Shown one piece after another: positions 384 through 5,880 of a DNA stretch of 6,185 nt. The translations under genes were made by a program, and so were the position numbers. Each line of letters opens with the position of its first letter. The stretch's first letter is position 1. Source of the DNA: a virus (lineage: Duplodnaviria; Heunggongvirae; Uroviricota; Caudoviricetes). Under the pieces are notes generated by a model. That model searched no databases, was not told the origin of the DNA, and worked only from the letters and a program-made list of their open reading frames with translations. Where the stretch lies: the IMG/VR virus record IMGVR_UViG_2778261570_000026; one strand, 5' to 3'.

Positions 384-1795
384 AACTGGCACCGAACTTA
401 AAAAAACAGCCACACGACAAAATGACCGAAGTCATTATTTTTGCGGGTAGTGATGCCTGGGCGCACGCGAAACAGTGGCAGGAACAGGACGGACGACTTG
501 CTGGCGACAACGTGCCACCTGTATGGCTTGGAGACAGCCAGCTTGACGAACTGGCAGACCTGAAAATCATCGACGATGGTCGCTATTGTGTCCGGCTGTA
601 CAAGGCAGGCCACATCAAGCCGTCAAATATTAATGCCATCGGGCAAAAACTGGCGGCGGCAGGTGTACGGGATGCGAATTATTACCCTGAGGGAATGCAC
701 AGCCAGAAGCTGGAGAACTGGCACGACTACCTGCAACGGATCCGCGAACAGGCAGAGCGCGGGGAAATTCTTACTGACGAGCAATACAGCCAGCGAAAAA
801 CCACGCTACCAATGAGTATTGGATCTGCAGGGTACGACACACAGCTTGATTATGTCGTTAAGGGCGTGATTCCGGCTAATTCATTGTGCAGCACATACGG
901 CGCGAGCGGTTCCTATAAATCGTTCCTCGCGTGTTCCTGGGCGTGTCATGTTGCCACGGGGCGCCACTGGGGAGGCCGCAGGGTTGCGCATGGTTCGGTG
1001 ATGTATGTCGTCGGTGAAGGGGGGATAGGTGTCCCCCGTCGTATCAAGGCATGGGAAATCGTTAATGATAAACGGGTGGAAAATCTGTACCTGGTAAATC
1101 GCCCGATTTTTCCGGCGGTCCCGCTTGATGTTGATGAGATGGTCATCGCTTCCCGTCAGGTTGAACGGGAAACGGGTAAACCGGTACGCATGATTATTCT
1201 GGATACGCTGGCGCGTTGCTTTGGCGGTAATGATGAAAATGACGCGCGGGATATGGGGGCGTTTATCCGTGGATGTGACGAACTGAAACGACGCACAGGG
1301 GCCACGGTACTGGTGGTTCACCATTCCGGCAAGGATGAAACAAAGGGGGCGCGTGGTTCCAGTGCATTTCGTGCATCTCTGGACGCTGAATACCGTATTC
1401 GCCGTGAAGGTGCGGACAGTGAAGCCCTGGTTATCTCCTGCACCAAAATGAAGGATGCGGAGGAACTGAAAGAGGCTGCATATGATTTACGCGTGGTGGA
1501 GCTTTTTACCGACACTGACGGGGAGTTAATCACGTCGCTGGTGGTTGTGGATAAGCCGCGCCCACCTGTTGAACTGGAACGCATCGAGGAAGCCGGGAAC
1601 AAGACGGAGAATCACGCCGCGCTATGGGGCTGTATCCGTTCACGCACACAGCGCGGCGATAAATGCACTATCCCGTTGTTGCGTGATGATATGAAAAAGC
1701 TGGGGTATGAGATGAAACACTTCCGGCGCTGGCTGTACAAGCTGGAAGGTGATGGCGTTATTGCTATTGACGGTGATGACGTGCGCCCACTGTAA
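380..1795 (+). CDS. Replication initiator/helicase-type protein: RepA-like RecA-fold P-loop NTPase (AAA_25-like) with a ~140-aa N-terminal domain
   Basis: 471-aa ORF. C-terminal half carries a P-loop-like segment (TYGASGSYKSF), a Walker-B-like hydrophobic strand ending in Asp (RMIILDTLA) and a VVHHSGKD motif, matching the pattern of RSF1010-RepA/AAA_25-type replicative NTPases in phages and plasmids. An iteron array begins at its stop codon. Family assignment is from motif reading only. Confidence 0.75.
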   Translation: MKLAPNLKKQPHDKMTEVIIFAGSDAWAHAKQWQEQDGRLAGDNVPPVWLGDSQLDELADLKIIDDGRYCVRLYKAGHIKPSNINAIGQKLAAAGVRDANYYPEGMHSQKLENWHDYLQRIREQAERGEILTDEQYSQRKTTLPMSIGSAGYDTQLDYVVKGVIPANSLCSTYGASGSYKSFLACSWACHVATGRHWGGRRVAHGSVMYVVGEGGIGVPRRIKAWEIVNDKRVENLYLVNRPIFPAVPLDVDEMVIASRQVERETGKPVRMIILDTLARCFGGNDENDARDMGAFIRGCDELKRRTGATVLVVHHSGKDETKGARGSSAFRASLDAEYRIRREGADSEALVISCTKMKDAEELKEAAYDLRVVELFTDTDGELITSLVVVDKPRPPVELERIEEAGNKTENHAALWGCIRSRTQRGDKCTIPLLRDDMKKLGYEMKHFRRWLYKLEGDGVIAIDGDDVRPL

Positions 1796-1990
1796 AAAGT
1801 GGGTAGTAAAAGTGGGGAGTGTGGGGAATTTAACAAAATTGAAACGCGATTCCCCACTTTCCCACCTGTATATACCCCAAAAAGTGGGGAGTAAAAAATA
1901 CATTGAAAAACATCACGTTAGAATCACAAAAAAAAGAAGTGGGGAGACGTTGGGTAATTTCAAAAAGTGGGTAGTAAAAGTGGGGAGCAG
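1794..1990. repeat. Iteron-type replication origin (candidate ori)
   Basis: Direct copies of AGTGGG(G/T)AG at 1798-1806, 1811-1819, 1883-1891, 1938-1946, 1966-1974 and 1979-1987, with degenerate copies at 1820-1828 and 1949-1957. One inverted copy (TTCCCCACT) at 1850-1858. A perfect 26-bp direct repeat (AAAAAGTGGGTAGTAAAAGTGGGGAG) at 1794-1819 and 1962-1987 bounds an A-rich stretch (about 1892-1937). Sits in the non-coding gap right after the rep gene. Confidence 0.7.
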
Positions 1991-1996
1991 TGAGGA

Positions 1997-2248
1997 ATGA
2001 CCAGAAAAACCAGAGATAAGACAGCGCCAAAATATCGCGCATTAGACATGACAGAGCACGCCTTAAAGGTGGCAATCAGAACGATAGACCGCCATGCCGG
2101 GGAAGGATACGCGAAAGCACATCCCGAACTGATAAGCGCATTCATGACCACAGCGGCGGCAAACTTTGCCACGCTGACCGAAAGGGAGATTGCCGAAGCG
2201 GAACAGGTGACAACCATCAACGTTAAAACCGGAGAGCATACAGCATGA
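1997..2248 (+). CDS. Hypothetical protein (83 aa), translationally coupled to ssb
   Basis: ATG at 1997 has GGGGAG at 1982-1987 upstream (9-nt spacer). Stop TGA (2246-2248) overlaps the ssb ATG (2245) in an ATGA junction. No recognisable family. Confidence 0.5.
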   Translation: MTRKTRDKTAPKYRALDMTEHALKVAIRTIDRHAGEGYAKAHPELISAFMTTAAANFATLTEREIAEAEQVTTINVKTGEHTA

Positions 2249-4540: not shown

Positions 4541-4966
4541 ATGACTGAGAAAGCAAATTCAACCAGAGCATTGATCATGGCACTGCCTGAGGCGCAGAAA
4601 TACCCGACGCTTGCGGAAAATCTCGCAAATAATGGCGCATCACTGACAGAAGCCCGAACGGTGCTTACTGCAAAGGCTGAGAGTGATAAACAGCGCATAG
4701 AGGGTATCAAGGCGTTACCGCTGGCATCAAAATACCCTGAGTTCACCAGTAAGCTGATTGAGTGTGGTTCTGAAGTAATGACAGTAACCTATGCACAAAC
4801 GTTACTGGCTGCCGTGGATGCCCAGGCAATGATGCAGGAAAAGAAAACGGCTTTTCTGTTTGATGCGTACATGGAAAAGCACAGCCCGAAATGTGTTGGA
4901 CCAGCAGCCGGTGATGGCAACGCCGGACTGACCGAAGATGAAAAGCTGTTGCTGTCTGTTAAGTAA
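4541..4966 (+). CDS. Hypothetical protein (141 aa) with an internal tandem duplication; last gene of the capsid operon
   Basis: Co-directional, tightly packed after the gpD-like gene and followed by a terminator. Contains two related ~33-aa modules (LPEAQKYPTLAENLANNGASLTEARTVL and LPLASKYPEFTSKLIECGSEVMTVTYAQTLL). No recognisable family. Confidence 0.6.
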   Translation: MTEKANSTRALIMALPEAQKYPTLAENLANNGASLTEARTVLTAKAESDKQRIEGIKALPLASKYPEFTSKLIECGSEVMTVTYAQTLLAAVDAQAMMQEKKTAFLFDAYMEKHSPKCVGPAAGDGNAGLTEDEKLLLSVK

Positions 4967-4980
4967 CTGAAATGAACGTT

Positions 4981-5012
4981 CGCGAGGTTGGCAAGGCCTC
5001 GCGATTTTTTTT
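4981..5012 (+). terminator. Rho-independent terminator closing the capsid operon
   Basis: Stem CGCGAGG (4981-4987) pairs with CCTCGCG (4997-5003) around a 9-nt loop, followed by a T8 run (5005-5012). Confidence 0.7.
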
Positions 5013-5022
5013 GTGTCCGGAA

Positions 5023-5128
5023 CGGTGGTGATCACCCCAATTTTCACGGGTCCTTTCCGGAACCTGAAACACCGGGGGTACGTGTACGCGCAAAAACGCG
5101 CTATTTATGACGCTTTCCGGGAAAGGGT
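5023..5128 (+). repeat. Left copy of an inverted repeat (~100 bp) upstream of the Nu1-like gene
   Basis: Core 5065-5110 equals the reverse complement of 5793-5838 at 40 of 46 positions with no gap, including a perfect 17-mer (5086-5102 = reverse complement of 5801-5817). Weaker similarity extends to about 5023-5128. Contains the palindrome GGTGATCACC (5027-5036) and CTTTCCGG motifs (5053-5060, 5113-5120). Confidence 0.6.
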
Positions 5129-5177: not shown

Positions 5178-5618
5178 ATGAATAATAAAGATTGTTTTGT
5201 TAGTCAGCAGGAAATAGCAGAACATTTCAAGGTCAACAGAACCACTATTCGCGCATGGACCAAACAGGGCATGCCGTATCTTGATGCGGATCGCGGAAAG
5301 TCCGGCGGTTATCACATCGGACACACATTATTCTGGTGCATGGGTAAAAGTCATCTTGATGCTATTGAGTACCACGGAGAAACCAGCGCACTGGAAAAGA
5401 TTATGGTTGCCAGGTTGATTTCATCAGAGCGCGACGAGTATTTCAGTGAAGAAACAGAACAGCGATTTGATAATGGTCTGCAGATTTACGGGTACTCGCC
5501 GGAAGATGTGAGCAAGGCACGAAATAAAATGGCTGGCTTTCTGGCTGGGTGGCGTCATGCCGTAGCCGTTCGCCGTGAGCATCTGCAACAATCTGTAGTT
5601 ACAGAGCAGGAAAGCTAA
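5178..5618 (+). CDS. Nu1-like winged-HTH DNA-binding protein: candidate terminase small subunit or packaging-specificity factor
   Basis: 146 aa. The N-terminus (VSQQEIAEHFKVNRTTIRAWTKQGMPYL) closely parallels the lambda Nu1 DNA-binding N-terminus as remembered (KKQLADIFGASIRTIQNWQEQGMPV). The remainder is not recognisably Nu1-like and the protein is shorter than Nu1. No large terminase gene follows. Nu1-like HTHs also occur in small regulators, so the function is uncertain. Confidence 0.55.
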   Translation: MNNKDCFVSQQEIAEHFKVNRTTIRAWTKQGMPYLDADRGKSGGYHIGHTLFWCMGKSHLDAIEYHGETSALEKIMVARLISSERDEYFSEETEQRFDNGLQIYGYSPEDVSKARNKMAGFLAGWRHAVAVRREHLQQSVVTEQES

Positions 5619-5774: not shown

Positions 5775-5880
5775 CCACCCTTCCGAAAAATCTCATAAAC
5801 AGCGCGTTTTTGCGCGTCCCATGACCCCCGGTGTTTCATTTTCCAGGAAGGACCCGCCACAATTACGGCATTGTTTCCCA
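5775..5880 (-). repeat. Right copy (inverted orientation) of the repeat flanking the Nu1-like gene
   Basis: Reverse complement of 5793-5838 matches 5065-5110 at 40 of 46 positions. Flanking similarity is weaker (about 17 of 30 in the outer arm). Confidence 0.6.

Follow-up and report, generated by a model that had tools for sequence, protein, structure and literature searches.

The 6,185-bp stretch analysed here (IMG/VR virus record IMGVR_UViG_2778261570_000026, Caudoviricetes; the whole stretch is referred to as the window) carries a rep gene followed by a gap of 201 bp (1796-1996, rep stop to the next ATG at 1997) that is very probably the vegetative replication origin (ori) of a phage-inducible chromosomal island (PICI) of the EcCICFT073/EcCIDI14 type, as judged from comparative analysis and structure prediction. 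By sequence comparison the window is part of such an island, an E. coli phage satellite. A sequence-only reading, made without database searches, had proposed that this gap is the element's own ori and is served by the Rep protein encoded upstream. Four lines of comparative evidence argue for that proposal: the position of the ori of EcCICFT073, the exchange of rep and iterons as one module, the concerted change of the iterons, and the co-variation of the iteron core with a single residue of Rep in a comparison of about 90 relatives.

Over its rep-ori region (1700-2100) the window shows 97.5% identity to EcCIDI14, which Fillol-Salom et al. (2018, ISME J, PMC6092414) list among their PICIs in Table S1. 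In EcCICFT073 the ori directly follows the 3' end of rep, with iterons in two sets on either side of an AT-rich stretch, an organisation common to all PICIs identified in that study; its rep-ori segment drives plasmid replication, and deletion of the ori reduces replication (PMC6092414). Since a catalogued PICI contains a nearly identical rep-ori stretch, and the authors extend their description to "all" catalogued PICIs, the ori of the window is an ordinary case of a described feature, an iteron origin beside rep in a PICI. The precedents from PICIs and from the Staphylococcus aureus pathogenicity islands (SaPIs) therefore make an origin the expected reading for such an element.

The repeats, their copies and the A-rich stretch reported in the sequence-only reading are all present where it had placed them. 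Six exact copies of AGTGGGKAG begin on the + strand at 1798, 1811, 1883, 1938, 1966 and 1979, an inverted copy with one mismatch is found at 1850-1858, and a perfect 26-nt direct repeat, AAAAAGTGGGTAGTAAAAGTGGGGAG, occupies 1794-1819 and 1962-1987. Tandem copies are 13 bp apart from start to start, in agreement with the spacing given before. The gap also holds a perfect 10-bp inverted repeat (1851-1860 / 1881-1890). With up to one mismatch, AGTGGGKAG occurs 8 times in the window as against 1.47 +/- 1.25 times in 200 dinucleotide shuffles of it, none of which (0/200) reached 8, and the calculated chance expectation of a perfect 26-mer pair in 6185 bp is approximately 4e-9. GTGGG/CCCAC pentamers are likewise concentrated here, with 9 of the window's 14 falling in 1790-1995.

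Alignment of 10 E. coli elements, with rep-ori regions 69-99% identical, defines 11 iteron slots in a fixed layout, in the window with the core (A)AAGTGGG: three direct slots, a spacer of approximately 21 bp, two inverted slots, the palindrome GTATATAC, one direct slot, an A-rich spacer of approximately 45 bp, and five direct slots. The features of rep and ori are as follows.

380-1795, + strand: rep, encoding the 471-aa initiator-helicase in three parts (N-terminal domain, RecA-fold RepA-like ATPase, C-terminal winged helix)
1598-1792, + strand: part of rep encoding the C-terminal winged helix; the codon for His447 (1718-1720) starts the predicted recognition helix MKHFRRWLYKL
1796-1806, + strand: iteron I1, AAAGTGGGTAG; the left cluster (1796-1828) begins with it at the rep stop codon
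1809-1819, + strand: iteron I2, AAAGTGGGGAG; left cluster
1818-1828, + strand: iteron I3, with core GTGGG at 1821-1825; left cluster
1829-1849, no strand: spacer of approximately 21 bp between the left direct and the inverted iterons, its first part mostly A/T
1850-1860, - strand: iteron I4, reverse complement AAAGTGGGGAA
1858-1868, - strand: iteron I5, with core CCCAC at 1861-1865
1868-1875, no strand: palindrome GTATATAC, at the dyad of the inverted repeat 1851-1860 / 1881-1890; candidate site of initial melting or helicase assembly
1881-1891, + strand: iteron I6, AAAGTGGGGAG; direct partner of I4 across the TATATA core
1892-1935, no strand: A-rich central spacer of low stability, 78% A+T in its richest 40 bp; candidate unwinding element or factor-binding spacer
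1936-1946, + strand: iteron I7; first of the right cluster (1936-1997), which is direct throughout
1946-1956, + strand: iteron I8, degenerate, with GTTGG at 1949; right cluster
1964-1974, + strand: iteron I9; right cluster
1977-1987, + strand: iteron I10; right cluster
1987-1997, + strand: iteron I11, degenerate, with GTGAG at 1990; overlaps the Shine-Dalgarno sequence and ATG of the next gene

The six direct copies and one inverted copy counted earlier are thus among the slots, but seven copies are too few for an array in which the alignment gives eleven. Those overlooked were I3 at 1818-1828, the inverted I5 at 1858-1868 and the degenerate slots at 1949 and 1990, together with the palindrome at 1868-1875, which is conserved family-wide. 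The 26-bp repeat had been thought to bound the origin. As a distinct bounding element it was rejected, since its identity is not kept in P393F10 and strain 135, the two closest relatives compared slot by slot, in which the equivalent iteron pairs differ from each other; it consists of two tandem iteron pairs.

Comparison of the iterons with those of related elements, which the sequence-only reading had proposed as a check, gave one layout throughout the family. From the rep stop codon this runs through 2-3 direct iterons, a spacer of 20-30 bp, 1-2 inverted iterons, (C/T)(G/A)TATA(T/C)(A/G), one direct iteron, a second spacer of 40-55 bp and 4-5 direct iterons to the next gene, and it is constant across genera whatever the sequence of the iterons. 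The motif [CT][GA]TATA[TC][AG] was found in 70 of 86 loci at 50-87 bp (mostly 60-77 bp) past the rep stop, as compared with 5% of control windows, and wherever it is present it sits between an inverted and a direct iteron of any sequence.

A BLAST comparison of the window with EcCICFT073 found homology over 73-733 and from 2036 onward, and none over 734-2035. The homologous 73-733 covers DUF4222 and the first ~118 residues of Rep at 76% nucleotide identity, and the restart of homology at 2036 marks the right edge of an exchangeable rep-ori module. As homology is missing over 734-2035, the exchanged unit comprises the helicase, the C-terminal domain and the ori, and reaches 13 codons into the gene that follows. 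In EcCICFT073 and two further islands with a D5-type Pri-Rep, the syntenic gap holds 9-11 GGTAGA/TCTACC iterons and a single GTGGG. Sequence comparison thus indicates that Rep and its iterons have been swapped together as one module between otherwise homologous islands.

The mosaic junction at 733/734 lies inside rep, and the Rep of EcCICFT073 beyond it is an unrelated protein of D5/superfamily 3 (SF3) type, so that one shared N-terminal domain has been fused to two classes of helicase. A further arrangement was seen in Xenorhabdus beddingii (L013), where two complete oris, at 2527-2735 and 2752-2960, stand in tandem after a single rep that encodes an Asn at the position equivalent to residue 447 of the window's Rep. 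The first has GTGAGG iterons, which fits this Asn-type Rep, and the second has (G/A)TGGGG iterons, a type paired elsewhere with His or Lys Reps. It is possible that the second ori is an orphan, either a relic of module exchange or one served in trans by another satellite.

Within each of the 10 aligned elements the intact slots, including the inverted ones, are nearly all GTGGG or nearly all GTGAG, and a few slots are degenerate in individual elements. I4 reads CTCAC in all three GTGAG-type relatives, and I5 reads CTCAC in UC4224 and OkiPb01712 and a degenerate TCGAC in NCTC9112. Residue 447 of Rep, in the motif MK[H/N]FRRW, is Asn in 3 GTGAG elements and His in 6 GTGGG elements. A wider set of 80 loci was then assembled with one genome per species, from Enterobacterales and two Oceanospirillales, in which the Reps are 46-71% identical. 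In a strict count, which set the dominant GTGNG in the 300 bp past the rep stop against the X of K-X-F-x-R-W, Asn occurred with GTGAG (25/25), His with GTGGG (14/14), Lys with GTGGG (17/17) and Ser with GTGCG (6/6), and no locus was discordant. When the core was relaxed, 78 of 79 loci were concordant, the fourth base of GTGNG being G with His or Lys, A with Asn, and C with Ser or Gly. Loci added later fit the same rule, namely a Gly-type Rep with (A/G)TGCG and another Asn-type Rep with GTGAG.

The sole exception, L081, has His together with an "A", lacks an iteron array and looks like a decayed element. Truncated oris are found in L032 and L079. These three loci and L008 are decayed relatives, in which the ori is cut off after the first iterons or absent; in SCU-171 rep itself is in fragments beside an IS66 insertion.

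It is a point against a functional interpretation that this co-variation is correlative, and that adjacent rep and ori are co-inherited, so linkage alone gives some association. Parsimony on a tree of the ATPase domain requires approximately 11-12 changes of each character (residue and base), and H/N switches are repeated among close E. coli Reps that are 87-97% identical; these repeated switches argue for functional coupling beyond linkage. From the sequence data we infer that residue 447 reads the fourth base of GTGNG.

Rep was divided into an N-terminal domain (aa 1-~135), an ATPase (aa ~150-390) and a winged helix (aa 407-471). It matches the Pfam family AAA_25 (E=3e-44) and is named "helicase RepA family protein" in RefSeq. 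By sequence the nearest solved relative of the ATPase is RepA of RSF1010 (1g8y, E=0.0026), and by fold the ATPase core gave RadA/Rad51 matches in Foldseek. In the AlphaFold2 model aa 407-471 are predicted with confidence (predicted local distance difference test, pLDDT, ~95) as a helix-helix-helix-hairpin, with residue 447 directly before helix 3; Foldseek with this C-terminal domain agrees on a winged helix, with weak E-values. This winged helix is likely to be the DNA-binding domain of Rep. The sequence-only reading had proposed the N-terminal domain for a binding assay, a choice that the prediction of a C-terminal binder at aa 407-471 speaks against. The N-terminal alpha/beta domain (aa ~10-125) is also modelled with confidence. 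Residues 1-137 have no assignment in Pfam, PDB sequences or NCBIfam, and match only a PHROG "DNA primase" family, over an N-terminal segment of it, and the N-terminus of the EcCICFT073 Pri-Rep; domain and motif scans recognised no primase domain or motifs in Rep, its N-terminal domain included. The RecA-like core is poorly resolved in the model. A Foldseek search with the full-length model returned periplasmic-binding-protein matches that were rejected as spurious (TM-score ~0.16).

A mechanism can be proposed from these features. On induction by the helper phage the island would be transcribed rightward through rep and ori, and Rep would be made. The winged helix of Rep would bind each iteron through its recognition helix, with residue 447 (His) reading base 4 of GTGNG. 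Rep oligomers would then assemble on the opposed iterons around the TATATA core, where the flanking arrays would raise local occupancy, and would melt the DNA with the aid of the low-stability A-rich spacer. Rep would load itself as the replicative helicase, as for SaPI Rep proteins, after which the single-stranded-DNA-binding protein (SSB) of the island would coat the strands and host polymerase would take over; priming would come from host primase or from some island function. The repeats with their statistics and conservation, their concerted change, the co-variation with Rep, the module exchange and the predicted fold are observations. What is conditional in this scheme is that Rep binds, where exactly the DNA melts, that Rep loads itself and what supplies the primers.

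Several observations weigh against the origin reading or against parts of this mechanism. Its support is entirely comparative or drawn from structure prediction, from which binding, melting and replication are deduced. The ATPase part of the AlphaFold2 model is of low confidence (pLDDT <50 over 317-408), and self-loading by a RecA-fold Rep is an extrapolation, because the EcCICFT073 and SaPI precedents use a D5/SF3 helicase. Two of the 11 slots (I8 and I11) are degenerate in the window. The A-rich stretch had been taken for the unwinding element, and it does have low stability (nearest-neighbour dG of 1890-1939 is -56.4 versus a window mean of -70.2, sd 5.0, that is, 2.7 sd below the mean), but it ranks as only the fourth least stable 50-mer of the window, with three less stable, and the long central spacer is not AT-rich in many relatives. 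The melting site is therefore uncertain. Since the long spacer is so often not AT-rich, the core of opposed iterons, TATATA and direct iteron at 1850-1891 is preferred as the best-conserved candidate, on sequence grounds, for Rep assembly and first melting, and the A-rich spacer would then assist as an element for unwinding or spacing.

In a subset of relatives the central spacer contains CTGAAACC-N-CATTACTGG, which is also found in EcCICFT073-type oris. Moreover, CTGAAA(C/G)C-N4-8-CATTACTG(G/A) is conserved in ori spacers despite different iteron classes and even different Rep superfamilies. It was seen, for example, in L040, L052, L087, L092, L096 (~4960-4985), L011 (~9180-9204), L098 and L099, of which L011, L098 and L099 have EcCICFT073-type oris. 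The clade of the window is without the full element and keeps a GAAAC-type remnant (TGAAAAAC in the window, TGAAAC in relatives). Such conservation across sequences points to a site that is independent of Rep and would serve a host factor or priming.

A role mainly in transcriptional control, in which Rep or another regulator of the island or helper autoregulates rep or gates read-through while replication starts elsewhere, is improbable as a replacement for the origin reading. Many plasmid iterons are generally known to double as autoregulatory operators, the last iteron here extends over the Shine-Dalgarno sequence and start codon of the gene that follows, and the array is located in an operon that runs in one direction and has neither a predicted terminator nor a predicted promoter. 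However, experiments identify the syntenic region of EcCICFT073 as an ori (PMC6092414), the island has no second iteron cluster or other candidate ori, and opposed sites around a TATATA core with a low-stability spacer are kept across genera, as would be predicted for an origin and not for an operator. A scan of 1600-2300 found no sigma-70-like promoter or terminator, so a promoter/operator reading draws no support from it. A regulatory side-role is compatible with an origin, but because of the EcCICFT073 precedent and the lack of another candidate ori an operator role cannot replace it.

That the array serves for packaging (as a cos/pac recognition site) or for partition (as a centromere-like site) and binds some other protein than Rep is very unlikely. 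Short direct-repeat arrays are generally known to occur in cosB/pac and in parS/parC, and islands of this type are packaged by helper phage (PMC6092414). Against this, the iteron core co-varies with a residue of Rep and is swapped with rep, and not with TerS-like or capsid genes, the cos sites of EcCICFT073 have been published as separate from its ori, and no par genes were found among the window proteins. A search for lambda cosN-like sequence was at chance level, and an Rfam search of the whole window at E<=1 gave no match in the gap, only sub-threshold ones at 2631-2751 and 4907-4957. A reading in which the repeats merely reflect a repeat in a protein, or chance low complexity, is effectively refuted: although a mechanical open reading frame (1749-2000, 83 aa) covers the region, no gene is annotated there in the RepA-type RefSeq records examined, relatives vary by 1-nt indels in the gap, some copies are inverted and conservation is independent of strand, and chance is excluded by the shuffle statistics.

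The gene content of one relative also bears, circumstantially, on the reading of the gap as an origin. Record CP018459.1 (L096, K. pneumoniae pKp_Goe_795-4), a 16,971-bp circular "plasmid", is a capsid-encoding PICI-like element with genes for an integrase, a Ser-type Rep of the window's Rep family, a capsid, an adaptor and a terminase. Its ori has (A/G)TGCGGC iterons in the same layout, and no candidate replication gene other than rep is annotated in it. The element is probably a satellite that has been excised and replicates. A 10.8-kb E. coli "plasmid" with a primase-type Rep (NZ_CP148328.1) may be a similar case.

In the literature searched we found no description of the residue-to-base relationship, the family-wide TATATA core or the RecA-fold nature of Rep; the RecA-fold (RepA-like) helicase in place of a D5-type one and the residue-to-base code may be new. 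We tentatively propose, at somewhat less than even odds for the whole, that in this widespread Rep family a near one-residue/one-base code in the recognition helix sets replicon specificity, with all ~11 iterons of an ori converted in concert at each switch of the residue, giving co-resident satellites orthogonal replicons that do not cross-react and occasionally producing orphan oris such as that of L013, and that these Reps form a class of self-loading RecA-fold (superfamily 4-like) initiator-helicases unstudied biochemically in satellites. The value of the result lies mostly in annotation, the 201-bp gap being unannotated in RefSeq records. If confirmed, the residue-to-base relation would explain how many PICIs can share one cell with no cross-talk between their replicons and could be used to engineer orthogonal satellite replicons for synthetic PICI delivery vehicles, and Rep would be a tractable RecA-fold protein to set beside the Rep helicases of SaPIs, which are of SF3 type and load themselves.

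The gene order of the island is that of EcCICFT073, the prototype Gram-negative PICI. The first five window proteins are, in order, DUF4222, the AAA_25 "helicase RepA family" protein, an 83-aa protein, SSB and a small protein; the next five are a lambda-E-type major capsid protein, a gpD-like decoration protein, an uncharacterised protein, a helix-turn-helix (HTH)/TerS-like protein and a final small protein. Two genes directly follow the gap.

1997-2248, + strand: downstream 83-aa gene, phrog_1231
2245-2667, + strand: gene for the SSB of the island (Pfam SSB, E=9e-16), with conserved synteny

The SSB is likely to be an accessory of the replicon. Full-length relatives have, to the left, int, an AlpA-like HTH gene, an Icd-like gene, DUF4222, rep and the gap, and to the right of the gap the 83-aa gene, ssb and genes for a lambda-E-type capsid, a gpD-like decoration protein and a TerS-like HTH protein. 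In strain P393-F10 the full island is approximately 10 kb long, adjoins tRNA-Pro between yejM and yejO, and starts with integrase, HTH regulator and Icd-like genes. Among 5426 complete E. coli genomes, part of the window was matched in 1957 and the entire window in 12, at 95-98% identity; sequence like the rep-ori region (window 1700-2100) was present in 1059, with at least 80% of the stretch covered in 626.

Further features were observed elsewhere in the window. The HTH/TerS-like gene (5178-5618), with the AT-rich sequence around it, stands between the arms of an inverted duplication at 5039-5120 / 5783-5864. The arms, of ~82-90 nt, are 79-82% identical, and each holds a GCGCAAAAACGCGC hairpin; the duplication could be a cos-related or regulatory element. 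Past ssb there are back-to-back terminator-like hairpins at 2683-2751 and 2820-2880, with a sub-threshold Rfam match to ncr1175 (37.5 bits versus a gathering score of 60). Next, ahead of the capsid operon, comes an AT-rich stretch that contains the palindrome TTGCATTGCAAAAAATGCAATGA and is probably the promoter or operator of that operon.

Among known systems the closest to the window is EcCICFT073, with which it shares the island type, the gene order, the position of the ori 3' of rep, two iteron sets around an AT-rich stretch, and homologous DUF4222, first ~118 Rep residues (at the nucleotide identity given above), downstream 83-aa gene and ssb. The two differ in that the Rep of EcCICFT073 is a D5_N/DUF5906/Pox_D5 (SF3) protein acting with GGTAGA/TCTACC iterons, whereas that of the window is a RecA-fold AAA_25/RepA-like protein with (A)AAGTGGG iterons; the module of EcCICFT073 is the experimentally tested one, and that of the window is known from its sequence. 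As in described PICI oris, the first iteron begins at the rep stop, within an island context seen in L001 and L097 (tRNA-Pro, int, HTH, rep, capsid/decoration/TerS-like), two iteron sets (I1-I6 on the left and I7-I11 on the right) surround the A-rich 1892-1935, and the initiator has a predicted C-terminal winged helix. The one feature of the studied examples that fails is an AAA+/SF3 (D5-like) helicase, because the helicase of the window is RecA-fold (RepA-like), matching AAA_25, RSF1010 RepA and RadA.

In SaPIs the C-terminal winged helix of Rep, a self-loading helicase, recognises 5-6-nt iterons just downstream of rep, and the oris have 6-12 iterons in opposite orientations on either side of an AT-rich centre, with no accessory loader (PMC9371898). 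The window shares with the oris of SaPIbov1, SaPI1 and SaPI5 an initiator-helicase with a C-terminal winged helix, iterons immediately past rep with copies in both orientations, and an AT-rich stretch. Unlike the window Rep with its RecA fold, SaPI Reps are hexamers of AAA+/SF3 type from a Gram-positive host; in addition, the opposed iterons of the window (I4/I5 versus I6) flank a short TATATA palindrome, and its long A-rich spacer is flanked by iterons of the same direction.

The P4 alpha system resembles the window in being that of an enterobacterial phage satellite with one multifunctional replication protein, the C-terminal part of which binds short ori repeats (PMC6092414, discussion; also general knowledge). 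P4, however, needs a distant second cluster of repeats, crr, and alpha combines a primase with an SF3 helicase. The window has a single cluster, and no distant crr cluster was found in the 24-kb locus L001; the six exact AAGTGGGG sites of that locus all lie inside the rep-ori gap, so that there is no crr-like second site. RSF1010 (incompatibility group Q, IncQ) has a relative of the ATPase, RepA, and an iteron-based origin, but its iterons are ~20 bp long and are the target of another protein, RepC, and its RepA has no DNA-recognition domain, whereas the window has a fused winged helix and iterons of ~9-11 bp. The initiator and primase separate from the helicase that characterise IncQ are missing here, with no homologues of RepC or RepB among the window proteins.

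Initiators of Rep_3 plasmids (pPS10, R6K, RK2, F, P1) are dimeric non-helicases with two winged helices, and their origins have iterons of ~17-22 bp and DnaA boxes, often also IHF sites, and use loading of host DnaB. Rep has no match to Rep_3, being an AAA_25 helicase with a single C-terminal winged helix, the iterons of the window are ~9-11 bp long at a spacing of 9-13 bp, and no DnaA box (with up to one mismatch), IHF consensus or GATC was found in 1700-2100. SV40 large T antigen and papillomavirus E1 offer an analogy only, as initiator-helicases on paired opposed sites; their helicase superfamily and DNA-binding fold differ, and there is no homology. On the sequence evidence, the ori of the window is placed, and would work, like a PICI/SaPI origin, and not like one of the Rep_3, IncQ or P4 ori/crr types.

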